Shown here one piece after another: positions 1,711 to 59,900 of a stretch of DNA of 64,000 bases. The position numbers and the translations under genes were made by a program. The notes beneath the pieces are model-generated. The model did not search any database. It was not told the origin of the DNA and saw nothing but the letters and a program-made list of their open reading frames with translations. Within the stretch, counting starts at the first letter, position 1. Every line of letters starts with the position of its first letter. The DNA is from a virus (lineage: Duplodnaviria > Caudoviricetes): IMG/VR virus record IMGVR_UViG_3300037722_001090; one strand, given 5' to 3'.

Positions 1711-4700
1711 TTAGAGATCGCCTTCACCCTGAGCCATGATACGATCCATGTACTCAGTAGCCTCACGCTCGATACGTTTACGGATATTCTCCGCCACAGC
1801 AATCTCAACATCCTTAATGTACGGATTGTCAGGATTCACACGCTTAGCAAGAGGAATGATGAACTTATCCGCATCGAACAGCCAGAACAAGCTGCCAGGC
1901 TTACTGGTAATCTTATCCGCACCAGTATCCCTGTCCTGACCAGACCAAGTGCCGAAAGACTGAACACCAATCGACAACATGAGCTGCTCCTTAAACTCAT
2001 CCATGAAGAAGCGATAATCAGGCTTACCGAAATACTTCTTACAAGCAAACTCAGCAATGATATCAATGTAACCGCGATAATCATTGGCAAGTGCAGCCCA
2101 GGCAATACGACGAGCCCTCTTGTCCACAATGAGAGACTTGTCATCCTGCAGAATCCTGGAATGCAGAGAATACCCCTCAATGATGGTACCATAAAGATTA
2201 CCACCATTAATGAGCAGGCTAGTAGCATTCAATACGAACTGAGGAGTCCAAGGAAGCTCAGCTTTGAGCTGCCTGAATTCACTATGAAGTGCTACCTTCT
2301 TTGCCCATTCAGTACGACAAAGATTACGCATATCAGTACTGTCCGAATGACGAGTAGTACAACTCACATCACGCAGAACATTAAGGACATGGCGGTAAGG
2401 GTTATATTCACTGCACTTGATATCCTGCAACTTACGGATAATCGCCTTCATGCAAAGATGCGGAATACCCTTAACGCTACTGTTCCCTCCATCCTTACGG
2501 AGAGCGCAGTAATCCTGAGGAGCAGAACGCAGCGGCATAACACGGCCATTAACACCATAAAGGCGAGTAATGGTTGCTGCAGCATCTTCCTCAGCAGAAA
2601 TGTCATGATGCTTCATGCCATCAATTGCAAGCTGGACAATCTCACCCATATGCATGATCTGAGCAGGAGTGAGAGGAGTACCATTCCACCAATTCTCGAA
2701 GATGATCTGCCGAGACAGGTTATCCAGAGAGCCAGTATCAATAGCACTCTGAGCAATAGCCAAGTAAGCCCTATAGGTCTGAGTGACAAATGCTTCTTCA
2801 CTCATAAGGCCTTTGGCTTTAGCCTTCTTCTCCTTAACAGGAGGGAGAGGACGCTCAGTTACAGGGAATGCGATGTCAGGATGAGGGAATACAATACAAG
2901 TATCCCCATCGACATCACCGAACATAGTCCAGAGAGCCCTTGCGCTAAGCTCAATGCAATCCGTAGTACCATTCAACTTGTGATGATGAAACTCCATGAA
3001 GTTACCATCACCAACAACCGGATTACGACCAATGTTCCATTTAGTATCGGGCCCAAGAAGCTTCGTGAACTTCTTCTTGCTGGGACCGTTGAACATATAG
3101 ACCTTCTCATTAGTCTCCAGAAAATGCTTATACTCGAGCAGGTCAAGCTCTTCATTAACCTCCAAGTAGAAGGCCAAATCAGACAGCCGCACCTTATACA
3201 CATTCTGGATCAAGTAAGTCCAAATACGAGCCATCATAACAGTAATGCGACTCGTATACATAGGAACACGCCAATCACCAAGCTCTTCGTCATATTTAGT
3301 GAAGAGGAAAGCCTTAAGTGGCTCACTAATAGCATCGTCCATAGTGGCTTCAGCATCCGACTTCAAGATACTGAGATAGCCACTAGCCTTACCTGCCAAT
3401 GCATCAACTACGATCTGCGCATTAGGAATCGCAGTCTCCACAATACGAGACACAAGCTCACTGTCCAAACGAACAGACTGAACACCAAGCGACGACTTTC
3501 CATCACTAACCTTGATTGCAACAATACGCAATGCAGGTTTCTCAGGAGTAATGGGAATAAGCACGATATCACCATGCTTGAGCCGGCCCTTCTGCGTTTT
3601 AAAGTTACCAAGACCCATGATAGCATCCTGATCCTCAAGATTGAAGCCATACTCTTCAACCTTCTCCTCATACCTGTTCACATGAAACATACACTTGCCC
3701 TTGAAGCTAGGCATCACATCACCAACCTTGAATTGGTAGATAGAAGGATTGGTCACGGCCAACTCAGCCATTACCTTAACATCAGCCTCATCAAATACAT
3801 GATAGCTCCTCGCCTGAGCATTTCCGTTAACACGCTCCTCTTTAGGAGGCTTAGGCACAGTCACTTCCTTGCCAGCAGTAACTGCAGCATTATACTCCTC
3901 CATCTGCTTAGCAAACCTCTTAAGCTCACTGACAGGAGTGTACCACATGCTAAGACAAGTAAGCATGTTACCATCGTTAAGAGGGTGTCCGCCCCAACCA
4001 GTCATATGTTCGGTGCGAGGAGTGTGACCAACAATCTCATCATTAATAACGCGCACACGAAGATACTGAGCATTCTCCGTACTTGCGATCTGATAAGGAT
4101 TGGGCGTCATGAACGTACCAGTAGGCTTAAACGGATTGTCATGATTACGAGGATCGTCACCCATCAACTCTGTCCAATCCTCAAGATATGCCTTACCAAG
4201 CAAAGGTTCACTCTTCTTAGCATTACCAAGTACGTGCTTGGCTTCACTAGCGGCTACATCCTGCATACGCTTGAAGATCTTAACCCTGTTGTTAGAGTCG
4301 TGCTCTTCAATAGACATAGGGATAACCTTGCCTCCCTTGCACCACTCATAGAATGGCGAGTTCGAGGCAATCTCAATCATGGCATCAGTACCATTAATGA
4401 CAAAGTCCGTACCGATAACCACCTCCTTTTGTACCGGATCACCATGCTCATCAATGCCTGCTTGCGTTTCAGTGATCTCAATCACCGCACCAGTATAGAC
4501 AATGCCCTTAACTTTCTCAAGCGTAGGGCTAAGTCCATGCAACCTGATCTTCGGATCATTCTCCGAGACAGGGTTAACTGCACCACTATACTCTTTAGGC
4601 TTAGTGGCGATAAGGCTGAGCTTCCTGTTCTTCATGGCATCTCCCTTGTTGTGGGCCTCCAGTTTGTCTTTGAACAGTTGCACCTGCTCTTTAACGGTGC

Positions 4701-5322
4701 CCTGTTTGACGAAGGCCGAAATTTCAATCTCTTTGAATCCAGCCAATTTGAGAATCTGCTGGTCCGACTTACCCCTGATGAGTGCTTCGGTTGCGCGACG
4801 GGCCTTTCTTCCCTGAGCAACAAACATGTCCTGAATGATCCTGTTCATATCTGCCAATTTGTCATTGCGCTCCACCTTGGAACGGACATCTTTGAGCTGG
4901 AACTCATAAATAGAGTTAACCAACTCCATGCCTTCGAGCTTTCTGAACTCAGACCGATGCATACCGATCTTATAGGCAATGAGACGTAAGTCGTCATCGC
5001 CACCCTCTTTGTTGAGGATGTTGATCAGCGTGGTCTTGTTCTTGAACCCTTCCGGATCCTCGAATTCCTCAGGCAGCAGAGAACGGCTCATGAACTCATA
5101 AATCACGATGCGCAGACGATCAGCAGTTGCCGCATTGTACGTGGTGTACAAAGGAACGCCGAGGTCCTTCGCGATCTCCTTGAGGGCAGTGATACCCTTT
5201 TCATCAAGACCCTTCTTCTTGATGATGACTTTAATCTGCGTCTGGTTCATGTGTACCTCCTTGTGGTTAGATTTCTTGCCATTAACGCCATTGCCATTGG
5301 TGTTACCGTTGTGCTGTGTCAT
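1711..5322 (-). CDS. Single-subunit double-psi-beta-barrel RNA polymerase (YonO / QDE-1-RdRP-like), probably non-virion
   Basis: GRNPVV (R766) lies 37 aa before GDVDGD (D803; nt 2902-2916), matching the beta-prime R-x-P...DxDGD arrangement. YQFKVG...FKGKC resembles the cellular-RdRP Q-x-R-x-G...KG motif, and QLAIDGMKH follows. Start set at ATG 5322 (SD GGAGGT). Confidence 0.85.
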   Translation of the reverse strand: MTQHNGNTNGNGVNGKKSNHKEVHMNQTQIKVIIKKKGLDEKGITALKEIAKDLGVPLYTTYNAATADRLRIVIYEFMSRSLLPEEFEDPEGFKNKTTLINILNKEGGDDDLRLIAYKIGMHRSEFRKLEGMELVNSIYEFQLKDVRSKVERNDKLADMNRIIQDMFVAQGRKARRATEALIRGKSDQQILKLAGFKEIEISAFVKQGTVKEQVQLFKDKLEAHNKGDAMKNRKLSLIATKPKEYSGAVNPVSENDPKIRLHGLSPTLEKVKGIVYTGAVIEITETQAGIDEHGDPVQKEVVIGTDFVINGTDAMIEIASNSPFYEWCKGGKVIPMSIEEHDSNNRVKIFKRMQDVAASEAKHVLGNAKKSEPLLGKAYLEDWTELMGDDPRNHDNPFKPTGTFMTPNPYQIASTENAQYLRVRVINDEIVGHTPRTEHMTGWGGHPLNDGNMLTCLSMWYTPVSELKRFAKQMEEYNAAVTAGKEVTVPKPPKEERVNGNAQARSYHVFDEADVKVMAELAVTNPSIYQFKVGDVMPSFKGKCMFHVNRYEEKVEEYGFNLEDQDAIMGLGNFKTQKGRLKHGDIVLIPITPEKPALRIVAIKVSDGKSSLGVQSVRLDSELVSRIVETAIPNAQIVVDALAGKASGYLSILKSDAEATMDDAISEPLKAFLFTKYDEELGDWRVPMYTSRITVMMARIWTYLIQNVYKVRLSDLAFYLEVNEELDLLEYKHFLETNEKVYMFNGPSKKKFTKLLGPDTKWNIGRNPVVGDGNFMEFHHHKLNGTTDCIELSARALWTMFGDVDGDTCIVFPHPDIAFPVTERPLPPVKEKKAKAKGLMSEEAFVTQTYRAYLAIAQSAIDTGSLDNLSRQIIFENWWNGTPLTPAQIMHMGEIVQLAIDGMKHHDISAEEDAAATITRLYGVNGRVMPLRSAPQDYCALRKDGGNSSVKGIPHLCMKAIIRKLQDIKCSEYNPYRHVLNVLRDVSCTTRHSDSTDMRNLCRTEWAKKVALHSEFRQLKAELPWTPQFVLNATSLLINGGNLYGTIIEGYSLHSRILQDDKSLIVDKRARRIAWAALANDYRGYIDIIAEFACKKYFGKPDYRFFMDEFKEQLMLSIGVQSFGTWSGQDRDTGADKITSKPGSLFWLFDADKFIIPLAKRVNPDNPYIKDVEIAVAENIRKRIEREATEYMDRIMAQGEGDL

Positions 5323-6174: not shown

Positions 6175-6176
6175 AC

Positions 6177-6251
6177 TCACACTCCTTTCAGTTCAGGTAC
6201 AAATACAATAGCCATCCAGAACGACACCCACACTAATGCAACAATAGTCAT
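6177..6251 (-). CDS. Hydrophobic micro-peptide, 24 aa (MTIVALVWVSFWMAIVFVPELKGV)
   Basis: Hand-translated; SD AAGGAG; first ORF of its cassette. Confidence 0.55.
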   Translation of the reverse strand: MTIVALVWVSFWMAIVFVPELKGV

Positions 6252-6287
6252 GGCTCTTCTCCTTAGATATATGTGCATAATTGCACC

Positions 6288-6320
6288 TAATAAAAAAAGG
6301 GGCTAAAGAACAGCCCCTTT
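6288..6320 (-). terminator. Rho-independent terminator
   Basis: AGGGGCT...AGCCCCT hairpin followed by TTTTTTATTAGG. Confidence 0.85.
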
Positions 6321-6325
6321 AATTA

Positions 6326-6583
6326 CTACCCGATCATTCTAAGTCCTCTAGCGTGAGGAACAATCTTGACAGTCGCACTTTCATACTTGCCAAGGACCTC
6401 ATACAGCTCCTCCAGATGATCGAAATCACCCTTAAGAGTACGATTAATTACCTTTTTGCAAGCCCCATCCTTAGCAAGGCTTCTCCAAGAGGAAGTTATC
6501 CTTCTTTCCAGTTGCCCAATCTTCTGATCAAGGATATTGAGCTCGTCTTCAACAACCATTTTGTTCGCTGCGATAACCATCAT
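6326..6583 (-). CDS. Hypothetical helical protein, 85 aa
   Basis: ORF track; SD GGAGGT; flanked by terminators. Confidence 0.75.
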   Translation of the reverse strand: MMVIAANKMVVEDELNILDQKIGQLERRITSSWRSLAKDGACKKVINRTLKGDFDHLEELYEVLGKYESATVKIVPHARGLRMIG

Positions 6584-6630
6584 GTTACACCTCCAAGGAA
6601 TTTGATATCACCGATATGGCGATATACCTA

Positions 6631-6659
6631 TTAAAAAAAAAGGGACCCGAAGGCCCCTT
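6631..6659 (-). terminator. Rho-independent terminator
   Basis: AAGGGGCC-TTCG-GGTCCCTT hairpin followed by a T run. Confidence 0.85.
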
Positions 6660-6663
6660 GATT

Positions 6664-6861
6664 TTATATAACTCTTAGCATCATCACATAAGTGCCTCCA
6701 ATTACATTATAGTTTTTAATAACTATATTTACCTCTTCGCATAACTTTAATTCCCTTTTGACCTTTTCGCCTAATATAATACCATCATATTTAGCACCAA
6801 AATCTACAACAACATAAGCACCAGTCTGCACAACAACACCTCTCTTTACAGCACCTAACAT
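6664..6861 (-). CDS. Stand-alone S1-domain protein, 65 aa, resembling ribosomal protein bS1 domain 1
   Basis: GAVKRGVVV..YVVVDFGAKYDGII..ELKLCEEVNIVI aligns by eye with E. coli bS1 GSIVRGVVV..VVLVDAGLKSESAI..EIQVGDEVDVAL (recalled from memory). SD GGAGGT before ATG 6861. Confidence 0.7.
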   Translation of the reverse strand: MLGAVKRGVVVQTGAYVVVDFGAKYDGIILGEKVKRELKLCEEVNIVIKNYNVIGGTYVMMLRVI

Positions 6862-6918
6862 AACTACCTCCAAGTATAAGAATTAAACTTACGCACACAT
6901 ACTATATATGTACATATC

Positions 6919-6947
6919 TAATAAAAAAGGGCCTATTGTAGCGCCCC
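6919..6947 (-). terminator. Probable rho-independent terminator
   Basis: Weaker GGGGC...GCCC hairpin followed by TTTTTTATTAG. Confidence 0.6.
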
Positions 6948-6953
6948 ACATTA

Positions 6954-7097
6954 TTACTTGTACTGAGTATCGCGATAATGCTTCCAAGTACGAAGATCAT
7001 GATTATAATTATGATTTACGCGCAGACGACGCACACGCACTTGAAGTGCCTCTTTACGTAAATTCCAACCACCACATACTGGACAAGTATGAGCCAT
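6954..7097 (-). CDS. Basic hypothetical protein, 47 aa, with CPVC knuckle
   Basis: Hand-translated MAHTCPVCGGWNLRKEALQVRVRR...; SD AAGGAG; bounded by terminators. Confidence 0.7.
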   Translation of the reverse strand: MAHTCPVCGGWNLRKEALQVRVRRLRVNHNYNHDLRTWKHYRDTQYK

Positions 7098-7131
7098 AAT
7101 AGTTCTCCTTGTTATGGTACATTATTGTACC

Positions 7132-7162
7132 TAATAAAAAAGCGGGGCAATATGCACCCCGC
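7132..7162 (-). terminator. Rho-independent terminator
   Basis: GCGGGG(T)GCATATTGCCCCGC hairpin followed by TTTTTTATTAGG. Confidence 0.85.
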
Positions 7163-7176
7163 CTCTATATAACCCC

Positions 7177-7350
7177 CTATGCCATGCATCTACCAGCATA
7201 GAGCTGCATGAAGACATCTCTCGGCATGAGATCTCCGCCTATGTATGTGCCCATATCTTGCACTATGCATGCCTCAGGTAGGAAGGCCTCTGCAGCCTCC
7301 CTATCGCATCTCTCGATAGCTTCTTCAATGGACCTACAGATGATAGTCAT
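7177..7350 (-). CDS. Hypothetical protein, 57 aa (MTIICRSIEEAIERCD...)
   Basis: Hand-translated; SD AAAGGAG. Confidence 0.7.
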   Translation of the reverse strand: MTIICRSIEEAIERCDREAAEAFLPEACIVQDMGTYIGGDLMPRDVFMQLYAGRCMA

Positions 7351-7380
7351 GGTATCTCTCCTTTAGTTAATGGTTAATAG

Positions 7381-7491
7381 TTAGATATATAGGCATAGTG
7401 CGACAAGCACCATACCCACAACGAACGGGTACAACTCTTGGGCCATGATACGCCCCTTCCCAACCTTACTCTTACCCTGATACATACGCAT
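7381..7491 (-). CDS. Small protein, 36 aa, with C-terminal hydrophobic helix
   Basis: Hand-translated MRMYQGKSKVGKGRIMAQELYPFVVGMVLVALCLYI; SD GGAGGT. Confidence 0.6.
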   Translation of the reverse strand: MRMYQGKSKVGKGRIMAQELYPFVVGMVLVALCLYI

Positions 7492-7522
7492 AGTACACCT
7501 CCACTATATAGGCATGATTGCC

Positions 7523-7552
7523 TAATAAAAAAAACGGGGGTTATTAGCCCCC
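7523..7552 (-). terminator. Rho-independent terminator
   Basis: CGGGGGCTAATAACCCCCG hairpin followed by a T run and ATTAGG. Confidence 0.85.
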
Positions 7553-7575
7553 GCCTCTATATAAGCCCCTTAGTA

Positions 7576-7854: not shown

Positions 7855-7943
7855 GATGATTCTCCCTGTTAATTGTTAGAAGTCGACCCCGGGGTTGCAA
7901 ATAGTCCATACCGACCTACATCTATATACCTACAGTCCTTTAA

Positions 7944-8011
7944 TCACTCCAGCCCATTTCAATCTCATATCTAGGCTTTTTAGATCATCACTTCACTCCA
8001 GCCCATTTCAA
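7944..8011. repeat. Perfect 19-bp direct repeat TCACTCCAGCCCATTTCAA x2
   Basis: Copies at 7944-7962 and 7993-8011, in the divergent gap between the two arms. Confidence 0.85.
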
Positions 8012-8270
8012 ATCCACTATAGACTTAAGCTTTTTACTCCACTCCTTTACACGAAACCTTTAATAAGACTTTTCCTTATTAAAACTTTCCCCATATTCGA
8101 TGCCGGGGTCTGTGACAAAAATCTTTTCCATTTTCCCCTATACGTTTCCCTCATATAGGACCAAAGTCATTTTGATTTCATATTTGACCTTTCTAATATG
8201 CACACTTAGCCTATTTCCCTTATTAACATACTGTACATAGATATGTACTTATTTTTTTTAGGAGAACATA

Positions 8271-19783: not shown

Positions 19784-19785
19784 TA

Positions 19786-25573: not shown

Positions 25574-26779
25574 ATGAATTTAGCAGCAAAACTACTACAG
25601 TTTGCAAAAGCTAATAAACTGATTGACTCAGAGACAAACATGAAGGGCGACATTAAACTTCGTGACATTCTTAATAAAGAAGATCTGTCACGTCTTGTCC
25701 CAATCGCAATCTCTGAAGTTGTAAGAGAAGCATCTGAATTTGAGCTTCTAGCTACCAAACTGTTTAAGAAAATTAACCAAAAAGAAGGTATCTATATTCA
25801 GCTACCTGCAATCGGCGCAATGGATACCATTGAAGAAGTTGCACCTGGCGCTGAGTACGGCACCGAAGAAATCACCCTTGGTGGTGGACAGGCTATTCGT
25901 GTTGACATCCGTAAATACGGTATCAAGCTTGCTCTTACTGAGGAAATGGTTGAACAGTCCCAGTGGGATGTTATCGGTGAATGGCTCAAAGCAGCTGGTA
26001 AGGCTTTCGCCCGTAAGAAAAACTGGATTCAGTTCCAGATGTTTGAAAGACAGGGACTAACCCTTGTTGACAACAAAAACCCTAACCATACTGTTCTTGG
26101 TCGTCCTCTTTCTGGTAAAGATGGCGTGGGTAACTTCAACTATTCGTTCACTGCAGAAGACTTCTTTGATATCTATGCTGCAATGCTTCAAGAAGGATTC
26201 GCTCCTGATGTAGTTGTTGTTCATCCTATGACCTGGGCAATCTGGGTTAAAGACCCTATCCTTCGTGCGTTTGCTATGACCAATGCTTCCGGTCCTATGT
26301 TTAACCAGTATGAAATGGGTAGTGTTAATCGTGAGCAGTACTTCGGTGGTCTTGGTAAATCTACCGGTGGAGCTGAACTAGGTGAAGATATGGCACCTGA
26401 CTATAAAGGTCGCCCTATTCTTCCTCCTTACCTTAATGTTCCTCTGAGCATTCTGGTATCGAAACAAGTTCCTTTTGATCCAGTTAATAAGCTTACCAGC
26501 ATGTATTTTGTAAATACTGAAAATGCTGGAGCTATTGTACAGGGCGAGGAAATCAACCATCACTCTTGGGCAGATCCCGAGCGTGACATCCAGATGATCA
26601 AACTTCGTGAGAAGTATGGTATCTCGATGCTTAACGAAGGTCGCGGAGTTGGAGTTGTTAAAAACATTCCTATCGTACCTAACCGTTGGGTTGATGGTCA
26701 GGTTCAGCCTACAATGGCAGTAGATGCTAACTCGAAGATGTTCCCTGAGGACATGACTGCTGCTGACGCAATGGTTTAA
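25574..26779 (+). CDS. Major capsid protein (HK97 fold)
   Basis: EEVAPGAEY, KYGIKLALTEEMVEQSQWDVIGEWLKAAGKAFARKK pattern; strong SD; followed by a terminator. Confidence 0.92.
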   Translation: MNLAAKLLQFAKANKLIDSETNMKGDIKLRDILNKEDLSRLVPIAISEVVREASEFELLATKLFKKINQKEGIYIQLPAIGAMDTIEEVAPGAEYGTEEITLGGGQAIRVDIRKYGIKLALTEEMVEQSQWDVIGEWLKAAGKAFARKKNWIQFQMFERQGLTLVDNKNPNHTVLGRPLSGKDGVGNFNYSFTAEDFFDIYAAMLQEGFAPDVVVVHPMTWAIWVKDPILRAFAMTNASGPMFNQYEMGSVNREQYFGGLGKSTGGAELGEDMAPDYKGRPILPPYLNVPLSILVSKQVPFDPVNKLTSMYFVNTENAGAIVQGEEINHHSWADPERDIQMIKLREKYGISMLNEGRGVGVVKNIPIVPNRWVDGQVQPTMAVDANSKMFPEDMTAADAMV

Positions 26780-48483: not shown

Positions 48484-51400
48484 ATGGCAAACAATCCATA
48501 CTATGAAGAAAATAGCGGCTTTGGTAGTGTATTAAAAGGTGCATCTTTTGCTGGCGCAGCTGGTGCATCTTATATGGCATATAAGAACCCTGAAGCTACT
48601 ACCCGTGTATTTAATCGTGTAGTTAATTCTGTTGCACCACTAAAAGCACCTGAGCTTAATCCATATCAAAGCAACATAGTTAGTGCTAGAGAGGCAATCT
48701 TCAGTACTATGGAAGCCAGAAATATACGTAGAGTAGCTTTAGATAAAGATATGCAAGCAAGAGCTTTACAGACAATCGGTAATGTAAATAACTGGGGTAC
48801 TGTAAGTGCTGTAGGTGCTGGTATAAAAGGTGGCAAATCTGATTCATTTAAAAGCCTAACTGATATTCTAGACATAGAAGGTAATGAAATAGGGACAAAA
48901 ATACATAACGCACTAGAGAAGAGATTTAATTCTAAAATCGATGCTCCTAAATTTAGTGGAACAAGAGGAACCTGGAAGATAGCAGGAGAAGATTTGTCTA
49001 TTGATTTCTCTAAAAAAGGACTAGATTCAGGACTAGGAAATTCATGGTTCAAGCGCGTTGGAGAGTCTTATTATGCTTCACCTTATCAGTCTAAAATGGC
49101 TAATCGTGGCGGAGGGAAGCTTGGATATGATGTAATGAGTCCAAATGAATTTGTATTAAATGTGCTACAAGAAGAAAATGCTGGGAGTGGAAGACTGGCA
49201 TATGTAGAGAGTCCTACTAAGTTTAGGAACGCATATGAAAAGGTAATAGGAGAGAAAGTTACTGGACTAAGTGGACATGACGATGCTGTTAAGTATGCTG
49301 TTCAGCAAGTACGTAAAGAAATAGAGTTAGGATCTAATGCTAGTGTTAGCAATGTAAGAACTATGCAAAAGGCTTTAAAGAAAGTATTTAATACAGATAC
49401 TATGTTTGTAGAAACTGACCCAGTAAAGCTTGGCTTATTTGGCAGTGAAGTTCGCGTAGAAGAATATTCTAGATATATACTTGGTAATACAGAACCTGAA
49501 TTTAAAGGTGTAGGTTCAAACCGCGTAGGCAGAAACATGAATAGTCTTACAGGAGGAAGCGTAAACATAGAAGGTAATGCACTTAAAGTAGCATATAATA
49601 TTCCTCATGATGCAAGAACTGATAGTTCTTTAATTAGGATTGTTAATGGTAGTGGCGCTACGTTGAAAAGTAAAAATGCTACATTTATGCAAAAAATGAT
49701 GTCTCTGTTTGGTGGATATAGGCTTGGACAAGATCCTTCATCTGAATTTGCATGGGCTGTTAGACCTACTGTTCTTCCTGTTATTGCGGAAGGAGATAAG
49801 TCTATGAAGGGTGCTTTATGGGCAGATGATAATACCGTTATTAGAAAAAATGGCACTCAGGGTATTTCTATGGGAAAGGAATATTTCAGAGGAACAGGAA
49901 CAAAAAGAATTGAAGCACACAGACTTGAAACATTAAGGCATATGTCTTTTATTGACGACACTAAGATTACTGAAGCTGCTGCTTCAAGCTCAGATTATGT
50001 AAAGGGTAAAATATATTCTCAGCAAAATAAAGGCATTTATAATATGACAATGGCTCTTAACCCGTTTTCTGAAGAGTCTATTCAAGTAAGTTCAGGTATG
50101 AGTAAGCATATGAAAGTTCTTATTCCAAAAACAGCTACTGTGGACACAATTGCACTTAAAGGAGAAGAATCGTATAGGAGGTCGCTACTTACACTAATGG
50201 ATGCAAACGGTGTATTAGATAAGGAATCATTTACTATAAAAGAAATAATGGAAAGTAAAGCTTTATCAGAAAGAGTTAGTACTGGTCAATCCAAAATTAA
50301 GATAGGAAGAGGGACATATCTAGGCAGAAAGAACATAGGTATGGAAATATCTAATGCTGAAGACTTTTACTCTACATTTGAAAGAGACGGAGAGATTATT
50401 AAAGCAAAAGTAGATATGTATATAGACAGTACAGACTTTAATCAAATGGTCGAATCAAATCAAAGAATGATGGGTGAAGGACATAAGCATGCAGGAGGAG
50501 TTAAATATATAGCTAAGGCCATGGATGACCCTGCTAAAGTTGCACTTACTGGTATAAGAGCCCGTGGAGCTTATGCAGTTGGCGATGACGGATTACTTAA
50601 TAGTTTATATGCAAGTGCAGGACTAGGTAATAAGCAAGAAGCTACTATTTCTCTTGGTATGTTTAAAAAAACATTCCCTAAGATTTCTAATAACAGCCTT
50701 CTTCTTGGTAAAGATTCACCTGAACTATTACACTTTACACAATCTGCACTTGGATGGCAATCCTTACAAAGTAGCATGGATATAACATTAAGTAAAAATG
50801 CCGCTGATCATTTTGTCGGTAAATACGTAAATGATGCATCAAAAGTATTAGGCAATCAAGATTATTATACTGGAAGAGGTGCATCTAAAAAGTTTAGCTT
50901 TAGTAAGGCTATGCGAGATGGAGCAATATCTTTTACTCAAAGAACAGAATCAGATGCTGCATTTGCACAGCAATATCAAGACACTGTACAGGTGCTTGGT
51001 ACTGCGCGAAGAGAATGGGGTAATAATCGTAAAGTTGCACACATAGAAAGCTTCTCTACGACTAATGCTAAAGATGCTGCTAAAGTTATAGATAATCAAA
51101 TTGAAGCAATAGACAATATGGGCAAGCTTGCAAAAGGTGAATATGCTGTAAGGCTATTTAATAAACAGGTAGATGCAAAAGAGCTTGGAGAACAAGCCTT
51201 AGTTAGGACAAGAGTATCACAAGGTAGTAGTGCTGGTCTTGGATCGACAAAAGCACTCACAATGGGTATTCTTGGAGGACTTCAACCTCAGGAACAAAAC
51301 TGGCTAGCTCTTGGTGGTGAATTTAATAAGATGCGTATTTCATGGAGAGATATGTATCACTTTACAGACAAGGCAGATATACTAAGAGATATTTCAGTTA

Positions 51401-53973
51401 GAAGCTTAACAGATGCAGATACTAGCGCAACTATGATTAAGCTAATGAGTGACTCTGCTGTAGGGCATAATGTTACTTCTGCTGTTAATGCATTTGAGAA
51501 GAAATATGGTAAAATTCCAAAACTAAAAAAGACAGAAGAGATTTTGGAAATGATAGGTGGTGATGCCGCTATGGTTCCAGGTGCTATTAGAGATCCTGAA
51601 TTCTTAGCAACAAAAAGCTTCTTAGGTAATAAAAAGAATGAGTTCGGTTTTATGGTCGAAATGGGTGAGCGTAATGTTTATATTCCAGGTAGAGATGTTT
51701 GGAAAGGATATGCAACTGATGAGGGGATGGCTACATTTGATTCTTTATTTGCAGAAACTCATAACTTACTTTTGAATAAAGCTCTAGGATCGAACATACA
51801 TCAAGATAGAGATGAGTACCAAAATTGGGTTAAAAGAATAATCAATGAAACAGGAAGCTCAAAAGAAGGACTACAAAGAACAATTTCATTATCTATTGAC
51901 CATGCAGTTGCTGCAAAACATATAGAAGATCCATCGTTTATTCATAATAAAATTATGATTGGTGCTATGGAGAGCTGGAAAGGTAATGCAGACAAGAAGT
52001 TAATTCCTGGATATGTAGCAAAAGCAGAAGCTCTAGAAAATACATTTGGTAATATAGCTAAAATCGGAGAAAAAGATTTTAGTTCAAGTATTAAACAGCT
52101 TATAACTGACACTAAGACAATAGCTAGTAGCCCTGGAAGCAGACAGACAATGCAAGAGGTTCTTACCTCACAATATGGTGAAGATCATTTTCTACAAAAG
52201 TATGCAAATAGGATGAGTGCAAACATGGACAAGGAAGGTGTAGCCAGTCTTGTTAAGGATATTACAACGGATCATGTTGCTAGTAGTAAGCTACTTATGA
52301 GCAAAATAAAAGAATATGCATCAACAGGGAATGAGTCTTTATTTGGAGAGATAGACACGCTTGTAGGAGGTGCACATAAGATTTTTGCCGTTAGACATCC
52401 TACACTTTATACTGGATCTTATTCAGGATTAATAGCTCTTATTGATAGTCAAATTGAAGGAACACAAAAAATAGCAATAGCACACAGAGCTAGTAAAAAT
52501 ATGGCGTCGGACTGGGACGGAGATACAATTAACTATGTTGACCTTAGATCTAAACTGGGAAGACAAAAAGCATTGAATCTTATTAATACGGATCAGAAAA
52601 TTGCATATGGTGTAATGAGTTCTAAAGTGCAAGACAGAATGACTGGAATTTTAACTGGCAAAGGAACTAATGCTCCATCCGAGGCCCTTGCTTTTTTTAA
52701 CTCACTAGACTCCCCTGCAGCACTAAATACAGTAGCTAAAAATATTTTACATGATGCTCCTGGCTCAACAGCTATTTCATCGTATTTTACTAAAGCAATG
52801 ACCGGTCAATTTAATATCTCTGCAATGGAAACAAAAAACTATATAAGAGATTTATCTGATAGTAAAAACTTATCACAAGAGCATATGAAAGAGCTAGGTC
52901 ACTACTTTGGAGTAATGGCATCTAAGAACTCTGAGCAGGAAGTAATCTCAGCTAAGCATGCAGAGACATGGCTTAAGAATATGAACAAAAGTGAAAGTAA
53001 GATGAACTATCTTACTAATTTAATAGGCGCTCAATCTGGACAAGAACAAATAGCGGAGTCTATTAGAGAGCTTGGATCAGTACATCCTATTGCTCAGATG
53101 GCAGCAATGAACGCCAAAGGTAAAGATAATGAGAAGTTTGCTGGTATGGTTTCTGACTTTATGGATTTTAAGGTAGGATGGAAACAGCTTGAGCAGCCAA
53201 GATTCGAAACTATGTGGGAAGGACTAGGTCTTGAAAAATCTCATGGAGTTAATACCTCAGCAGCTTGGGACATGTACGACTCTTGGTTAAAAGAAGGTGA
53301 ACATATTTTTGGTAATAAAATGGAATCTTCTGTTGCCGCTGGTATATCAGAACTCAGCTATTTAGAAGTTACTAAGCAGGCAATGTTTGATAAGAGATCT
53401 TCTGCAAGTGAAAGTATAGAGGCCATGTTTAGCCGTGCATTAGAGTTTATGAAAATGAGCGATAATGATAGGGCTGGAGATGCTGCAATGGGCGTATTAG
53501 ATAAGCTCGGATATAGGAAAACAGCACTACAGATGCTCACTTTACATGAGCAACAATCAAATATGGCACAAGCAACTCGCAAGATAGCTGGCTTTGATAC
53601 AGTATCTAAAGCAGCACAGTGGATGGTAGAAAAACCTGTTAGATTAGCTGGAGCTGTAGGTATTGGCTTATTAGGCATGACTGCAATTAACCTACTAAGC
53701 GGAGATGGTGGCCTTGAAGATCCAAATGATTTACCTAGTGTTAGTAATCCGGCATTTACAGGCGGTGGTGGAAATGGTATGATGAATACACATGGAGTCC
53801 AGCCACACGTAGGCGTAAACGCTAATGTAAACTTATTAACAGACAGTAACGATAATCCACAAAGTGCACTTAGTTACATTTCTAATATGTTTGGCTATAG
53901 TCAGGGCAGCGTTGTATCTGTTATGCATGATGGTGAAAACCCATACAAAAAAGATATGATGTATTATAATTGA
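48484..53973 (+). CDS. Putative virion-packaged RNA polymerase (double-psi-beta-barrel), 1829 aa
   Basis: VRHPTL (R1304) lies 39 aa before SDWDGD (D1343; nt 52510); hydrophobic Gly/Ala helices at both termini; embedded in the tail module. Confidence 0.75.
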   Translation: MANNPYYEENSGFGSVLKGASFAGAAGASYMAYKNPEATTRVFNRVVNSVAPLKAPELNPYQSNIVSAREAIFSTMEARNIRRVALDKDMQARALQTIGNVNNWGTVSAVGAGIKGGKSDSFKSLTDILDIEGNEIGTKIHNALEKRFNSKIDAPKFSGTRGTWKIAGEDLSIDFSKKGLDSGLGNSWFKRVGESYYASPYQSKMANRGGGKLGYDVMSPNEFVLNVLQEENAGSGRLAYVESPTKFRNAYEKVIGEKVTGLSGHDDAVKYAVQQVRKEIELGSNASVSNVRTMQKALKKVFNTDTMFVETDPVKLGLFGSEVRVEEYSRYILGNTEPEFKGVGSNRVGRNMNSLTGGSVNIEGNALKVAYNIPHDARTDSSLIRIVNGSGATLKSKNATFMQKMMSLFGGYRLGQDPSSEFAWAVRPTVLPVIAEGDKSMKGALWADDNTVIRKNGTQGISMGKEYFRGTGTKRIEAHRLETLRHMSFIDDTKITEAAASSSDYVKGKIYSQQNKGIYNMTMALNPFSEESIQVSSGMSKHMKVLIPKTATVDTIALKGEESYRRSLLTLMDANGVLDKESFTIKEIMESKALSERVSTGQSKIKIGRGTYLGRKNIGMEISNAEDFYSTFERDGEIIKAKVDMYIDSTDFNQMVESNQRMMGEGHKHAGGVKYIAKAMDDPAKVALTGIRARGAYAVGDDGLLNSLYASAGLGNKQEATISLGMFKKTFPKISNNSLLLGKDSPELLHFTQSALGWQSLQSSMDITLSKNAADHFVGKYVNDASKVLGNQDYYTGRGASKKFSFSKAMRDGAISFTQRTESDAAFAQQYQDTVQVLGTARREWGNNRKVAHIESFSTTNAKDAAKVIDNQIEAIDNMGKLAKGEYAVRLFNKQVDAKELGEQALVRTRVSQGSSAGLGSTKALTMGILGGLQPQEQNWLALGGEFNKMRISWRDMYHFTDKADILRDISVRSLTDADTSATMIKLMSDSAVGHNVTSAVNAFEKKYGKIPKLKKTEEILEMIGGDAAMVPGAIRDPEFLATKSFLGNKKNEFGFMVEMGERNVYIPGRDVWKGYATDEGMATFDSLFAETHNLLLNKALGSNIHQDRDEYQNWVKRIINETGSSKEGLQRTISLSIDHAVAAKHIEDPSFIHNKIMIGAMESWKGNADKKLIPGYVAKAEALENTFGNIAKIGEKDFSSSIKQLITDTKTIASSPGSRQTMQEVLTSQYGEDHFLQKYANRMSANMDKEGVASLVKDITTDHVASSKLLMSKIKEYASTGNESLFGEIDTLVGGAHKIFAVRHPTLYTGSYSGLIALIDSQIEGTQKIAIAHRASKNMASDWDGDTINYVDLRSKLGRQKALNLINTDQKIAYGVMSSKVQDRMTGILTGKGTNAPSEALAFFNSLDSPAALNTVAKNILHDAPGSTAISSYFTKAMTGQFNISAMETKNYIRDLSDSKNLSQEHMKELGHYFGVMASKNSEQEVISAKHAETWLKNMNKSESKMNYLTNLIGAQSGQEQIAESIRELGSVHPIAQMAAMNAKGKDNEKFAGMVSDFMDFKVGWKQLEQPRFETMWEGLGLEKSHGVNTSAAWDMYDSWLKEGEHIFGNKMESSVAAGISELSYLEVTKQAMFDKRSSASESIEAMFSRALEFMKMSDNDRAGDAAMGVLDKLGYRKTALQMLTLHEQQSNMAQATRKIAGFDTVSKAAQWMVEKPVRLAGAVGIGLLGMTAINLLSGDGGLEDPNDLPSVSNPAFTGGGGNGMMNTHGVQPHVGVNANVNLLTDSNDNPQSALSYISNMFGYSQGSVVSVMHDGENPYKKDMMYYN

Positions 53974-53980
53974 GGTAGAT

Positions 53981-56900
53981 ATGGCAATTTCTAATAAAGA
54001 GTTTATTGATGTGCTTAAAGCAGAAGGCTTATGGCCACCACAGGCAAATGCTGAAGCAGCATATGGAGCAGTTGAGTTTCCAGTAGGAAAACTTAAAATT
54101 GATGGAGATGCCTCTTTTACATCTATTTATGTAATGGACGGAGATACCATTGAGTTACATAAGCCCGGATATGTATTTAGTACAACAGGAGATCATGGCA
54201 CAGTACCCGCCGAAGGCATGGATGGCATGGCAACCTCTCTTCGTTATTATGGCTTAGATACAAAAGAGACAGCAAAAGAGGGCACAGGTAAAGCTGCAGA
54301 GCCATATGCTAATTGGCAAACTAGGGCAAACTTAGCCTTATTTAAATATGCAGAAAGAACAGGTAAAAATGTTGATGTTACTGGATACAATCAAGATGCT
54401 TACAAGAGAACAGTTGCTGCAATAAATATTGATGGTACGGATGTAGCTGATCTCTTTGTACGAAATGGTATATCTGCCGCAGGTACCGCCGCAGAAGCAG
54501 GCTTTGTACCTGAAGGGGGGATAACTGTTCGCTCACTGCAAGAATCAATGAATGAGGCAGCAACTAAAGGCTGGGGTCTATGGAATAAAAATCAAATTTA
54601 TGATGTCTTAAGAGATGTAAATAAAGAGACTGAATATCTTGATGGTTATATTAATGATCGATTTGGTAAAGCTAAAAGCATGACAGACGATACTGTTAAG
54701 CTTGGAGACGTATATCTTGATATACCTCCTACACACATAAGTATTAATCAGTTAAGAACATCATATTCTACACCACAATTTGGTGGCGAATCAAAGCCAA
54801 CATCTACAAGTACAGCGCGAACAACTATAAAGCTAAACCTTATTTTTAATGGTGAAGACTCAGTAAACGATGATTTTAAAAGAATCTATTGGCAGTTTAT
54901 CTATTGTCCAATTAACTTACTGTATTCAAAAGATATATACGAGAAGGTTGTTTCAGATAATCCTTATATAGCTAGGATGAATACTGCCACAATTAACACT
55001 GAAGAATCGTCTTCTTCTAAGTCATCTTCGTATTTTATCCCTGTAACTATGGATAGTTGGACCGTATATACTATTGAGGGTCATCCAGGGTCTATTGGAT
55101 GTACAATACAGCTATCTATCTTTAACTATTCTGCATACTTTGAAGGTGCAGGTAATGGCGTTGAATACTATACATATAGTGATAATCCAGGAAAGCATGG
55201 TAATGCAGTTAGATACACTAAGCACCTAGAAGAAGCTATTCACCCATATAACCAATATATCATGAAGCACCTCGGTAATAGCATTCAGCACTTTGATGCA
55301 TCAGATAGTCGCACTCTTATTTTTAAGGTTGAAGATAATAAATCTAGATTTGAAGGTAAACAAGAAGATATTAATGAGGATGTTTCAGATTTATCTGAAT
55401 ATCTAAAAGTTATACTTGAATCAGAAGTTGATGAATTAATGGTTAATGGTTCTGTAACTTTTCATAATAACTTTGCATGGTTACCAATTATAGGATATAC
55501 GCAACCAACAGCACAGTATATTGGTCCTGGTGAAACCAATATGTCACTAAGTATTAGAACTAAAAACAATAAAACCATATCAGGACTATTAGCAACATTT
55601 GGTGAAATGGTTCTTGATAGAACTAAACATACATACTATGATGATAGATACTTAGTGTCCAACTCGCTGTCTAGGCTATGTAAGGCTTCTGTTTGTTCAC
55701 TACGTAATATCTCAATTACAAACGTAGATCATCACCCAGGATGGTCCGATATTAATATTCAGCTCTCTAAGTCTTCCTATGCAGATCATCAGGATGAAGT
55801 AAACCCAGCTGCAGAATTTGATGAATATTTTGGACTACAAAGGTTGATTAAAGCTGCAAATGTAGATGAGGTTATGGAGGCTCTTGAAAGAGAACTTAAA
55901 CTAGCTGACATGACAGATATATCTCTTCCTGCAGAAGATGATTTGCTAGGACAAATGTGTATACTCTCTGGTATAATAAATGCACATTCATACATTAGTG
56001 ATGAAGCATACCTTGGGTACAATGAAATACTTTCTAATATACGTGCTTTTAAAGCAACTATTAATGATAAAGACATGAAAGAGCTTGGATTTTCTAAGCC
56101 TCTTATGGGAGACATAAAAAGTCTAGAGGTAAAAGGTACGGACATAATTGATCGTATGTTCATTCAGTCTCTACCTATATCTGTAAAATCTGACCCTAAA
56201 CAAATGAAAGCAATAGTTGATTTCGAAACATACTATAATGCTAAGAAAAAAGCAGGTGTTGTTAATGAATTTGATTCTTTTGAAAGCGCACTTAGAGGAG
56301 ATAATTCTAAAGAGGGTTTTGAATTAAGAGCAGAGATGATAGATAGGTATTTACCTCTTGATGAAATGATAGATATGACAGGTACTAAAAATAAAATAGT
56401 AGATGTAAATAAACACCTATTTAATGCCTGGGAAGAGTATTGGGGAGATAGACATACAGTAAGGTCGCTAAGCAGTGTATATATAAAAGATTTATTAGCT
56501 AGTGGTGTGGACACATCAGTATATGATGAAGAAATGGAAAATATAGTATATAGGATACTTAGATCCATATCTAATGAAGGCATGATGTTAAGTTACCAGA
56601 AGGCTTGGAATCCGCTAGCTCTTTCAATGGCTCGTGGTCATGCAATTGTTTTTAAGTTTACTGGTACAATATTAGAAGCACAAATAATTAAAGCAGCCCT
56701 TAGGGTTGGAGATGAGACATCATCTATAATTGGAGAGGCAGCTAGTTTTGGTACGCATGGATCTAAAGCAAGAAAGTTTTTTAGTTTACAAAACAATGTT
56801 AAATATCCATCTATTTCAGTAAAGTTAACTTGTCATAATAAGGATGTTGCATATAGTGAATATAGCACTAGTATGTCAGAGGCATCAAAAGAGGCATCAT

Positions 56901-59900
56901 GGTCTTTAGCTACTGCGTTTAGAGCTAAAAAAAGTAATGATGCTATATCTAGCTTTACGGGTAATGATAAGATTAACCAATCAGAAGTAAGTAAAGAGCT
57001 AGCTCTTTTGCGCGAGGATATGGAAGATGTTGCTTTTAGCAGAATACCTATGCCTCATGCAGCACATAGATACTTTCCTTTTATAGATCAGTATATTAAA
57101 CATAGCGAGCTTTTCTCTGCAAGCATGGGTGATTGGTTTAGAAATACAGCAGAAGACGATCCTTATTCATTTTTTGAAGAAGTAAGCGAAACTGTTGAAA
57201 ATTCAGTATCACCGCTCATGAACAATAAGGGGTGGACATCAACTTATCTTCAAAAAAGATATGGAAATACATATATAAACAAAATCAATGAAGATATTAA
57301 TGACCCATCTAAAATAATGGAAGCACTTTCTTTACCTGTATCATCGAAGGATTCAAGCGATAGAAATAAAGATGGATCACTTGCAAGACTTAAAGACGGT
57401 AAGATGGATACATCTATGCCTAAATTTAGTAAAGATATGGTAACAGACTTGCTTGGTAACTATAAGTATGATGAAGACATTGACAATAAGCCATATAGTG
57501 GAACTGTTCATTCAGGAGTATTTATTGCAGGATTCTATGATGGTGCAAAAGATGGTAAGAGAGCAAAAGATTTTAGACAAAATACATATGATACACATTC
57601 TATATGGCTTGATAGTGACGGTGCAATAAGCGGTCTTTATAATAAGCTAAATAGAAATCAATTAGTACCAAACGGAAACATGTTAGTAGAGGCTTCAGAA
57701 GCTCGCGAAACTAATGTTGCCTCAACATTAATTAATGGTGTAGGAAGAAGTTTAGCTGGTCCAATAGATACATCAGTTAAGTATGCTGGTGTATTTAAAT
57801 CAACATCACTTATAATGGCGCTTAATAAAAATCCTAAGATGTTCATGATAGAAACAGATAGGATACCTCCAGCACAATTTGCTCTTGGTCCAGATAGTGG
57901 ACTTAATATTGTTCAGGCTGATGAAAAAATATTGACTATGTTTGTTAGAGCTATTACATCTATACATAAAGGTGGCAGTGCTACAGATTATAAGAATATT
58001 GGATGGTCAGATCGTGCATCTAGACATTATGCTAAGGTTTTAGTTGCAGAAATTAAAACTAAATTAAGAGCAAGTGGATATTCAGACAGTTGTATTTACT
58101 ATGCTAAGCAATCAGAAGTTTCTGCTTTTGTAGCACAGAAAGAAGCTATATCATATGAGGAAGGTGCACCAGAAGAAATCTTTATGAGGGCACTAAGATT
58201 AAGAGCTGACAGTAATTTGCCTGTAGCTGACTTTGTTGATGATCATACAAAAAATATAGTTGCAAGACAATCTATGGCTTCATTAATGTCAACTACATGT
58301 TTAGAGAATGCTTTCCCTACTTATAAGCTATACATTATTGAAGAAGATACATCTGACATTAGGTATTTTTCACTAGACGATTATTATGATCTAAGAACAG
58401 CACAAGACTTAATGATTATAAAATCAAAAGATAATCCAGTACATATTCTAAAAGGTAGAATAATAGTAGATCCAAGATACATAACTGTTACAGATAAGGT
58501 AAAACAAAAAGTATCAAAATACAATGAAGATAGTGAACATGAACTAAATGAGCCATCATTACAGTTTATTGATACTAGGCTTGAAAACTACTTCAATAAA
58601 GGTTTTACACCTTTAAGAGAAGGTATGCGAGTTTGCGTTAAGCTTGGATATCATACTGATCCAAGAATGCTTGATACAATATTTATTGGTACTATTACTG
58701 GATTAAAAGGTAACATGACTTCTGGTGTATATGAACTTGAAGCAAAAGGTGATGGAAGAGAATTATTATCTCCTCCTAGTCCAGAGCTAAGGCCTAACGT
58801 AAGTGGTAAGAACTTTGCAGAGGTAATATCAAAGATACTTAGAACTAATCCAAGTATTATTCACTTTGGTAAAACATATGGATCTTTCATTGAAAAATTC
58901 TCTAGAGATCACTATACATTACTTGCAATAGCTAAGAATGGACTTCTGCAAGGAAGCTCAATGGCAGGTGGTGGACTAATGGGCACAATTGCAGTATCAT
59001 TGTCAATGGCATCTCCACAGAGAGCTATGTATAAGGTTGGAGCTAGAGTAATTGCTGGAATAGTAGGTATAGGTGCTGGTGGACTTATGGCTCAACTATA
59101 CAGCCCAGTACCATATAGTTTAATACAGAAAAGTAGAGATAAGTTTAAGCACGAAGCATTAGCGCAGTATAGTGGACATATATTCAAAGGGCTTTGGTTT
59201 TCAGAGGAGTTTAAAGCTGCAAACTTTTCACAAGCAAAAAAATGGATTCAAGGACATACATTCGATCCAGCAAAAGCGGCAAGAGAGGTTGCAGAGATAT
59301 CTTACAATACACTTAAGTATGGTAATGATCCTATTGATGACAATATATTAGCAGTTGATATTTGGCAAACAGGAATGACTCCATGGAAAACATTCAATAT
59401 GCCTGTTAATGGAGCAAGAACCGTATGGGACATTCTTGTAGATATAAAAAGAATGTATCCTAACTTTGCACTAGACATTAGGCCATATGGCAATAGATCA
59501 ACATTATTTATGGGGCCTTATGAGTCTGAAATGTGGAGAACAGATGACCCTCTACAGGCAATGGCTCCACAGTTATATCAAATGAGCAACGGAGCACCTT
59601 GGGCAGATGGACAGGCTTACGCTGAGCATACTAAGGCTGCTATTGAAAATATGGTTACTAGAGATCAGTTTCATAATGCTACTCCAAATACACGTAATAT
59701 AGCGCCTAGAGAGCCATTCCAAAGAACACACTTAGTGTCTTCCTTTAGCGATATAATTATGAATGGAGTTAGATCTACACCATATAGGGGATGGAACGAT
59801 GTAATAGTTTCTTACTCTAAAGATCCAGATGATGATGATTCGCCTCCAATTGTAAATCAAGTTGTTAATGCACAGCTAGATCCTAAAGCTAAAAGGACAA

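Follow-up and report, generated by a model that had tools for sequence, protein, structure and literature searches.

A putative single-chain beta-beta' type RNA polymerase encoded in the tape-measure position of a contractile-tail gene cassette

Gene organization of the locus

The window analyzed here is a stretch of 64,000 nucleotides (nt) from the IMG/VR virus record IMGVR_UViG_3300037722_001090 (Duplodnaviria; Caudoviricetes), corresponding to the minus strand of a 107,910-bp contig judged to be ~52% complete. Its late module contains an open reading frame (ORF) at 48484-53973 on the plus strand that is open throughout and encodes a protein of 1,829 amino acids (aa), hereafter P0001. We describe the evidence that P0001 is a divergent RNA polymerase (RNAP) placed among tail genes, and discuss its possible role as a polymerase carried by the virion. 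The coordinates of the features considered below are collected in Table 1.

P0001 is the middle one of three giant ORFs that occupy positions 42579-61396 on the plus strand and encode proteins of 1,963, 1,829, and 2,471 aa; the flanking two are referred to as giant A and giant C. The P0001 gene starts 13 nt after giant A and ends 7 nt before giant C, and no excess of promoter-like or terminator-like sites was observed across the three giants (41600-61500). Two tube-like proteins and two small genes (137 and 193 aa) are encoded on the same strand between the tail sheath and the giants, whereas three small genes followed by a baseplate-J protein gene (62602-63816) are located 3' of them.

Catalytic motifs and conservation in the P0001 family

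P0001 carries the segments KIFAVRHPTLY and MASDWDGDTINYV, the latter with the aspartate triad in DWDGD. A preliminary description of this DNA, made from the sequence alone, gave a spacing of 39 aa between the arginine and the first aspartate, which agrees with the positions of R1304 and D1343; the value of 37 that it gave for another RNAP encoded in the early region was also recovered, in the minus-strand ORF with the signature GRNPV...FGDVDGD. In the bacterial beta' subunit, the corresponding spacing is about 35 residues (R425 to D460 in Escherichia coli).

An exhaustive HMMER search of 1.8 billion representatives defined the P0001 family as 45 representatives at 50% identity. The members are mostly 1,700-1,900 aa long, and all those looked up are metagenomic proteins without a name. 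Conservation was assessed in an alignment of 29 full-length members (1,265-1,896 aa each; 18-38% identical to P0001), in which just 22 columns are invariant. The residues identical in all 29 proteins include (i) R1304, P1306, D1343, D1345, G1346, and D1347 of the catalytic strands, (ii) T1436, K1437, G1441, Q1485, and K1491 downstream of the triad, (iii) K685, R694, K743, E937, and G944 in the upstream half, and (iv) D1749, N1779, L1784, P1820, and Y1821 in the C-terminal tail. The arginine-to-aspartate spacing varies from 38 to 64 residues over the family, with a mode of 38-42, and the triad follows the consensus (N)AD-x-DGD, some members having exactly NADFDGD. In the two-barrel RNAP superfamily, the metal-binding DxDxD loop of the beta'-type barrel, usually NADFDGD-like, comes after an R-x-P strand, the beta-type barrel contributes two conserved basic residues, and a bridge helix and a trigger loop come after the catalytic barrel. 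A chance occurrence of the DxDxD pattern was rejected; other D.D.D patterns in the ORFs of the window have neither an R-x-P partner nor conservation.

The segment GHKHAGGVKY (aa 666-675) had been suggested as the possible source of the lysines expected on the beta side of the active site. This assignment did not hold, since both of its lysines, K668 and K674, vary in the family; the invariant basic residues K685, R694, and K743 are found just downstream, and the known single-chain two-barrel RNAPs (QDE-1, RDR2, gp62, and gp96) start aligning to P0001 at aa ~681. Beyond the triad, the TKAMTG segment lies in the middle of a 50-residue helix (aa 1411-1460; model residues 832-881), which resembles the bridge helix of beta', and the Q-x5-K-H segment that follows may correspond to the trigger loop, a reading based on beta' sequences and on the colinearity with beta' up to its residue 1375.

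Predicted fold and sequence similarity

The fold of P0001 was predicted with two template-free AlphaFold2 models built on family alignments. The model of aa 580-1710 has a mean predicted local distance difference test (pLDDT) score of 80.1 and a predicted template modeling (pTM) score of 0.78, and the model of aa 1-1000 has values of 78.5 and 0.75, respectively. Both are compact mixed alpha/beta structures rather than the extended alpha-helical ruler typical of tape measure proteins.

In a Foldseek search with the C-terminal model, the top 50 PDB matches were all largest subunits of RNAPs, including those of phages AR9 and phiKZ, bacterial beta', and Pol I, with the non-virion RNAP (nvRNAP) of AR9 as the best match (E 1.5e-4). 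VIA-align gave Z 9-10 for this model and placed its residues 414-1128 colinearly with residues 23-1375 of E. coli beta'. A search independent of Foldseek, conducted with both models over 48,161 representative chains, ranked the nvRNAPs of phiKZ (Z 9.2) and AR9 (8.8) at the top for the C-terminal model, followed by Mycobacterium tuberculosis beta' (8.7), Pol I (8.6), Pol II and Pol IV (8.5 each), and the vaccinia enzyme (8.4); QDE-1 and RDR2 (7.8 each), P74-26 gp62 (6.7), and P23-45 gp96 (5.5) scored lower. The isolated double-psi beta-barrel (DPBB) domains of CDC48-N, VAT-N, and designed DPBB proteins align to aa ~1139-1379, the segment that bears the triad. Thus, the DPBB fold anticipated around aa 1300-1350 is present in the model.

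For the N-terminal model, all 50 Foldseek matches were second-largest subunits (beta, Rpb2, archaeal B, and vaccinia Rpo132). VIA gave Z 9.1-9.7 over aa 120-977, with 400-540 residues aligned to beta 31-1258. The nine best chains in the Foldseek-independent search (Z 6.8-9.3) are all of the beta/Rpb2 type, including those of phiKZ and AR9, and the next one has Z 5.3; with both halves the scores drop sharply below the RNAP chains. Isolated DPBB domains align within aa 517-937 of this half. The VIA matches begin at aa ~115-130 and thus leave out a leader that has pLDDT 33-62 over aa 1-60 and helices at 13-98.

Since aa ~120-990 match a whole beta/Rpb2 subunit and aa ~993-1710 a whole beta'/Rpb1 subunit, P0001 is, according to the models, a colinear fusion of a complete beta-like module and a complete beta'-like module. 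The preliminary description had proposed a second, highly divergent two-barrel RNAP among the tail genes; the RNAP folds agree with this proposal, and the protein contains more than a DPBB pair. The identity of P0001 as an RNAP is well supported, and we consider it very probable. Based on the invariant motifs and the modeled folds, we predict that P0001 is a catalytically competent DNA-dependent RNAP.

Searches at the sequence level returned little. With the family profile against all PDB sequences, the three best matches were the beta' subunits of the AR9 and phiKZ nvRNAPs at a marginal E of ~0.03; the alignment covers the R-x-P...DxDGD stretch of P0001 and the NRNPT...DYDGD/NADFDGD segments of the phage enzymes. 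No match was found by phmmer with P0001 against PDB sequences or by megablast and tblastn with P0001 and the family member P0042 against 50,697 phage records, and a word-index protein search with P0001 yielded one distant homolog only. The RNAP domain PF00623 gave no signal in the genome, while all 14 controls gave one. The sole match in the ESM Atlas was a nameless cluster (score 0.82).

Tail cassette, C-terminal tail, and lack of cysteines

The gene cassette around P0001 is retained on contigs of 78, 125, and 401 kb from relatives with identities as low as ~20%. There, proteins of ~435 aa, ~400-550 aa, ~133 aa, and ~190 aa come first, then giant A, the RNAP, and giant C, and lastly three small genes and the J protein. 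The P0001 gene follows the tail chaperones, with one gene between them, and precedes the hub.

The protein had been described as having hydrophobic termini. A C-terminal segment (aa ~1715-1740) indeed has a Kyte-Doolittle value of 1.73 and is conserved, whereas the Gly/Ala-rich stretch at the N terminus stays below the same threshold. The hydrophobic helix is followed by a conserved tail that may serve as an anchor for assembly.

Cysteines are completely absent from all 29 aligned members of the family. They are also absent from giant A and from its counterparts and those of P0001 in two cultured phages (ME3_35, ME3_36, gp145, and gp146; see below), that is, from the two giants ahead of the hub in all genomes examined. 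By comparison, 8-12 cysteines are present in the hub giants and 11 in the early RNAP. Cysteine clusters of the cellular beta' subunit bind zinc. Their absence from P0001 and giant A appears to be a trait under selection in the tail-lumen or ejected proteins of this lineage; a loss in step with the tail-lumen-type neighbor would fit an unfolded transit through a channel and the oxidizing periplasm.

Comparison with known virion and phage RNA polymerases

The nearest precedent, which serves as the working model here, is Thermus phage P23-45, which has a virion RNAP (vRNAP) fused to the tape measure, gp96, and an nvRNAP, gp64 (PMC10770324). Like P0001, gp96 (PDB 8H2N) is a two-barrel RNAP at the tape-measure position with a C-terminal membrane segment, and both phages have a second, early single-chain two-barrel RNAP and a repeated motif in the early region that does not resemble sigma70 promoters. 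The two proteins differ in architecture. The RNAP of gp96 takes up the first ~1,200 residues of a 5,002-aa protein, is followed by a long tape measure with a metallopeptidase, and belongs to a phage with a non-contractile tail. In contrast, P0001 is almost entirely polymerase (aa ~120-1710 of 1,829), followed by the membrane helix and a tail of ~90 aa, and is encoded in a contractile-tail cassette; no peptidase match was found in it with Pfam or PHROG. Moreover, gp96 is a clamp-less enzyme of the QDE-1/YonO-like clade, whereas P0001 is nearer to whole beta and beta' (Z 8-9.7) than to gp96 (Z 5.5) or gp62 (8F5M; Z 6.7). Neither gp96 nor gp62 is among the matches of its N-terminal half, and no sequence similarity with gp96 was found.

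The best structural matches of both halves of P0001 are the nvRNAPs of the jumbo phages phiKZ (7OGP/8QUE) and AR9 (7S00/7S01) and the cellular beta/beta' subunits, which share the order of beta followed by beta'; this group also gave the only matches of the sequence profile, over R-x-P...DxDGD. The jumbo-phage enzymes consist of 4-5 polypeptides, and their virion copies are packaged in the head, whereas P0001 is a single chain encoded in the tail cassette. Compared with the cellular and jumbo-phage beta' subunits, P0001 has no cysteines, so no zinc sites, and no Pfam RNAP domain above threshold.

A giant virion-delivered single-chain two-barrel RNAP is also known from phi14:2, a crAss-like phage (gp66, PDB 6VR4), where it lies in a block of giant genes beside the tail genes and was found via its DxDxD motif (bioRxiv 10.1101/2020.03.07.982082). 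Unlike P0001, it is a QDE-1 relative encoded by a podovirus and is presumed to be packaged in the head; gp66 is not among the top 50 matches listed in any P0001 fold search, and we draw no conclusion from this absence. A literature search found the P23-45, crAss, N4, and phiKZ/AR9 systems and nothing on the P0001 family. The concept of a virion RNAP in a tail slot combined with a second RNAP is known. The novelty lies in the fused beta-beta' lineage of the enzyme, its location in a contractile-tail cassette, its lack of cysteines, and how broad the family is.

Counterparts in cultured phages

The same gene order was observed in Acinetobacter phage vB_AbaM_ME3, where ME3_36 (1,603 aa), flanked by a virion structural protein on one side and the baseplate hub on the other, carries the motif REP...GGDHDQD. 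In the ME3 record, the genes flanking ME3_36 are annotated by homology to Bacillus phage 0305phi8-36. The cassette of the latter comprises the sheath (139), tube (140), a tube paralog (141), 142, chaperonins (143/144), gp145, gp146, the hub gp147, a gpV-like protein (148), 149, 150, and a gpJ-like protein (151); here also, one gene separates gp146 from the chaperonins. P0001 is the positional counterpart of gp146. Both gp145 and gp146 were identified as virion proteins by mass spectrometry, and gp146 was designated a "hypothetical tape measure protein" (PMC2147016). In common with P0001, gp146 and ME3 gp36 occupy this cassette slot, have no cysteines, and contain a C-terminal membrane helix ~110-130 aa from the end. 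Neither protein has been annotated or discussed as a polymerase; the only polymerase recognized in 0305phi8-36 is the early YonO-like orf99 (PMC2147016, PMC7824862).

In a BFVD fold search with P0001, the second-best match was the ME3 protein segment A0A172Q021_2 (E 2.6e-6), taken here to be part of ME3_36, and a segment of a long protein of Microcystis phage MaMV-DC, A0A075BUT7_2, was also matched (E 2.9e-4). In the records of ME3 and MaMV-DC, a profile search gave no match, hmmsearch and hhalign against the giants of these two phages and against 0305phi8-36 gp145-147 gave non-significant results, and tblastn with ME3_36 returned only the self-match. As all sequence links to cultured phages failed, the connection with ME3 and MaMV-DC is therefore drawn solely from BFVD folds, motifs, and synteny.

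MaMV-DC (KF356199) encodes, on its minus strand, two "hypothetical proteins" with RNAP-type catalytic motifs. ORF65L (1,677 aa, 26 cysteines) contains QRTP...GDADGD, and ORF82L (3,560 aa, 1 cysteine) contains GDFDGD at aa 2537. In the transcriptome of Ma-LMM01, a relative of MaMV-DC, host sigma70 dependence was inferred for all gene classes and phases (PMC5780444).

Early RNA polymerase and repeated motif of the early region

The second RNAP reported for the early region in the preliminary description is indeed encoded there, as judged by its motif and the homologs P0048-P0050. The ORF spans 1711-5334 on the minus strand, with the true ATG at 5322. Beyond the R-x-P...DxDGD pattern, no relation between P0001 and the early RNAP was detected by BLASTP or by hhalign (probability 0.6%). 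Homologs of the early RNAP, such as P0048 (relative L003, 2895-6977), have an extra N-terminal cpYpsA domain (SLOG-type, PF12694) that is absent from the window copy. A scan of IMG/VR for the early RNAP found none, and two IMG/VR fragments with P0001 homologs (19% and 42% complete) have no early RNAP. The P0001 homolog P0005 and the early RNAP homolog P0048 come from the same sample, 3300005264.

The early region contains a repeated module in which a core motif, TTATTAGG, is combined with a T-run and a short hairpin. The core occurs in 6 copies against 1.04 expected, all in one orientation, and none of 100 shuffled sequences reached 6. The hairpin has a 5-bp stem and a 4-nt AT loop; the stems vary in sequence (GTGCA/TGCAC, GTACA/TGTAC, GGCA/TGCC). 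A variant of the motif at ~5340-5400 precedes the early RNAP gene and is recognizably kept before the operon of the homolog in relative L003; apart from this element, the motif as such is not kept in that relative. The module recalls the hairpin promoters of the N4 vRNAP, and one of the two phage RNAPs may use it as a promoter or 5' element.

Proposed role and alternative explanations

We propose that P0001 is borne by the virion and starts phage transcription, which would make early expression independent of the host RNAP; to this reading we assign a probability of roughly 0.6. We regard it as the most economical account of four features, namely expression late and together with the tail proteins, location in the tape-measure slot, the tail with a membrane helix, and the lack of cysteines; gp96/gp64 of P23-45 provide a demonstrated precedent (PMC10770324). 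According to this proposal, P0001 would be made late, together with the tail proteins, from its slot between the chaperones and giant A on one side and the baseplate hub on the other, and would be built into the virion; the conserved membrane helix and tail and the total lack of cysteines point to such a tail-associated role. On contraction of the sheath, it would be expelled with, or like, a tape measure. Inside the cell, D1343, D1345, and D1347 would bind the catalytic metal, and the enzyme would transcribe the first-entering genes, i.e., the short units on the minus strand that carry the T-run/TTATTAGG/hairpin motif. The first transcripts would include that of the second, non-virion RNAP, which would then take over, so that the start of infection would proceed without the host enzyme.

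Several observations weigh against this proposal or against its components. At the sequence level, no RNAP family was matched significantly: P0001 has no match in Pfam or PHROGs, PF00623 appears as a weak match (E 0.043) in only 2 of 38 members searched one by one, and the profile of the beta-like half has zero matches among PDB sequences. The fold matches score moderately, with Foldseek E between 1e-4 and 4e-2 and Z of ~9-10, and the TM-scores are low, as expected for multi-domain chains. The presence of P0001 in virions would follow from its positional equivalence with gp146; the latter differs from P0001 in length (2,537 aa), has no DxDxD motif, and shows no detectable similarity to it. The slot can therefore hold a protein that is not a polymerase; it is conserved, and a polymerase in it is not universal. 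A compact core of ~180 kDa with clamp-like parts could not pass the tail tube in folded form; P0001 would therefore travel unfolded or sit elsewhere. Finally, the early motif might just as well be read by the early RNAP or by the host RNAP.

The same evidence for RNAP identity would apply if P0001 were an active enzyme that is not packaged, namely a middle or late polymerase whose gene merely lies inside the tail operon, with the early enzyme or host RNAP starting the infection. We regard this as unlikely. Although the best structural matches of P0001 are indeed the non-virion enzymes of phiKZ and AR9, little remains to be transcribed by a polymerase that first appears when the tail proteins are made, as the infection ends. 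P0001 also has the conserved membrane helix and tail and a cysteine-free composition shared with giant A, gp145, and gp146 and not with the early RNAP, and the same slot holds a virion protein in 0305phi8-36. Alternatively, P0001 might be mainly a structural tail-lumen or tape measure protein that has co-opted an RNAP fold; it would grip DNA at the membrane as a plug, channel, or motor and aid genome entry, and would make no functional transcripts. The slot is that of the assigned tape measure in 0305phi8-36 (PMC2147016), and the architecture of the C-terminal helix is shared with gp146, which has no DxDxD; yet the invariance of the triad and of the R-x-P, bridge-helix-like, and trigger-loop-like motifs over 29 divergent members argues for retained catalysis, and the models are compact beta/beta' folds, not an extended helical ruler. 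This explanation seems to us quite improbable.

A two-barrel polymerase may also have another job, such as RNA-dependent RNA synthesis, production of replication primers, or synthesis of non-coding or decoy RNA on the entering DNA, given that the phage already has another RNAP for transcription and that the two-barrel fold is common to QDE-1/RDR2 (Z 7.8) and other non-canonical enzymes. But DNA-dependent beta/beta' enzymes give the best and fullest matches in both halves, and this extends to the N-terminal beta parts, for which RNA-dependent RNA polymerase-type enzymes are absent among the top matches; relays of two polymerases are, moreover, documented (PMC10770324). We therefore consider such a job highly improbable. 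For the virion-borne polymerase that we favor, a more specific scenario can be offered tentatively, and we hold it to be somewhat less probable than not. Throughout one lineage of large phages with contractile tails, to which 0305phi8-36 and ME3 are related (contigs up to 401 kb), the protein of the tape-measure slot may have become a complete cysteine-free single-chain beta-beta' core. This enzyme would be kept in the tail or alongside it, be threaded into the host when the tail contracts, and refold at the membrane, where it would transcribe the DNA as it enters and might also pull it in.

Implications

Virion RNAPs explain how some phages can start an infection without the host enzyme and thus escape host-directed control and rifampicin. 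Three solutions are known: the T7-like enzyme of N4, the head-packaged two-barrel enzymes of phiKZ/AR9 and crAss phages, and one tape-measure fusion in a Thermus siphovirus. The P0001 family would represent a fourth arrangement, in which contractile-tailed jumbo-type phages encode a beta-beta' core as one chain within the tail cassette. If the more specific scenario above is correct, P0001 would provide the first case of a cellular-type RNAP core that enters the host via a phage tail, and an independent invention of the P23-45 strategy from the other clade of two-barrel polymerases. It raises the physical question of how a cysteine-free polymerase of ~200 kDa passes through, or rides on, a contractile tail. 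For work on RNAP evolution, the family provides a very divergent fused beta-beta' lineage that is invisible to Pfam, PHROGs, and BLAST. The cultured phage vB_AbaM_ME3 appears to carry a counterpart, gp36, which opens the idea to bench testing, and MaMV-DC has two unannotated giants with DxDGD.

Neighboring genes and other features

Table 1. Features of the window and of the MaMV-DC record (positions refer to the window unless an accession is given)
Feature	Position	Strand	Description and basis
P0001 gene	48484..53973	+	Predicted single-chain beta-beta' type RNAP in the tape-measure position of the tail module; ORF, family, folds
N-terminal leader, aa ~1-119	48484..48840	+	Gly/Ala-rich stretch, then long helices; outside the RNAP match
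beta/Rpb2-like module, aa ~120-990	48841..51453	+	Foldseek, VIA, Foldseek-independent search
K685, R694, K743	50536..50712	+	Invariant basic residues (29/29); candidate substrate contacts, beta-side barrel
beta'/Rpb1-like module, aa ~993-1710	51460..53613	+	Foldseek, VIA, Foldseek-independent search
R1304-x-P1306...D1343-W-D-G-D1347	52393..52524	+	Catalytic barrel segment with putative metal-binding Asp triad; 29/29 invariance, profile alignment, DPBB matches
TKAMTG (T1436, K1437, G1441)	52789..52806	+	Bridge-helix-like; middle of 50-residue helix
EQEVISAKH (Q1485 and K1491 invariant, H1492 in most)	52933..52959	+	Trigger-loop-like Q-x6-H; after the long helix, colinear with beta'
C-terminal hydrophobic (membrane-type) helix, aa ~1715-1740	53626..53703	+	Kyte-Doolittle peak; kept in the family, also in ME3_36 and gp146
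C-terminal tail (SGDG..DPNDLPSV.NP.F ... LLTD ... DG.NPYK.DM..Y)	53704..53970	+	Conserved; candidate assembly anchor
Giant A	42579..48470	+	1,963 aa, no Cys; corresponds by synteny to gp145 of 0305phi8-36 and to ME3_35 (virion structural protein)
Giant C	53981..61396	+	2,471 aa, 12 Cys; baseplate-hub position; synteny with gp147 and ME3_37 (hub)
Terminase	14418-16247	+	Late module
Portal	19771-21966	+	Late module
Major capsid protein	25574-26779	+	Late module
Tail sheath	35200-37935	+	Late module
Early RNAP	1711..5322	-	Single-chain two-barrel RNAP, presumed non-virion partner; 1,203 aa, 11 Cys; GRNPV...FGDVDGD; homologs P0048-P0050
Early modules	6286..7532	-	Terminator / T-run / TTATTAGG / short hairpin / ribosome-binding site before small early genes; candidate phage-RNAP promoters
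Early-motif copies	1339-1350, 6286-6297, 6627-6638, 6917-6928, 7130-7141, 7521-7532	-	
MaMV-DC ORF65L and ORF82L	KF356199: 49224-54257 and 66652-77334	-	Unannotated giants with RNAP-type motifs

No Pfam or PHROG match was found for giant A. The N terminus of the window copy resembles the motif of the DEDD exonuclease ExoI (ILAIDTEVSGL), whereas its homolog on the 401-kb contig has instead nuclease-type matches to Pfam DUF559 (weak) and MTES_1575. This difference points to a conserved tail-lumen protein whose enzymatic head varies.

Giant C contains a Pfam SNase (staphylococcal nuclease) domain at aa 87-202 (E 1.2e-5), a PHROG endolysin-like region at aa ~1980-2081, and segments of hydrophobic character (~2084-2109 and ~2358-2365). 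An SLT domain is present in giant C of one relative.

At position 50634, the third base of P0001 codon 717, the window has G and the genome record has T. The early minus-strand block (positions 1-8200) has a GC content of 41-47%, compared with 33-39% elsewhere in the window. The GC skew is negative in the early block (1-8000) and positive in the late block (8000-64000).

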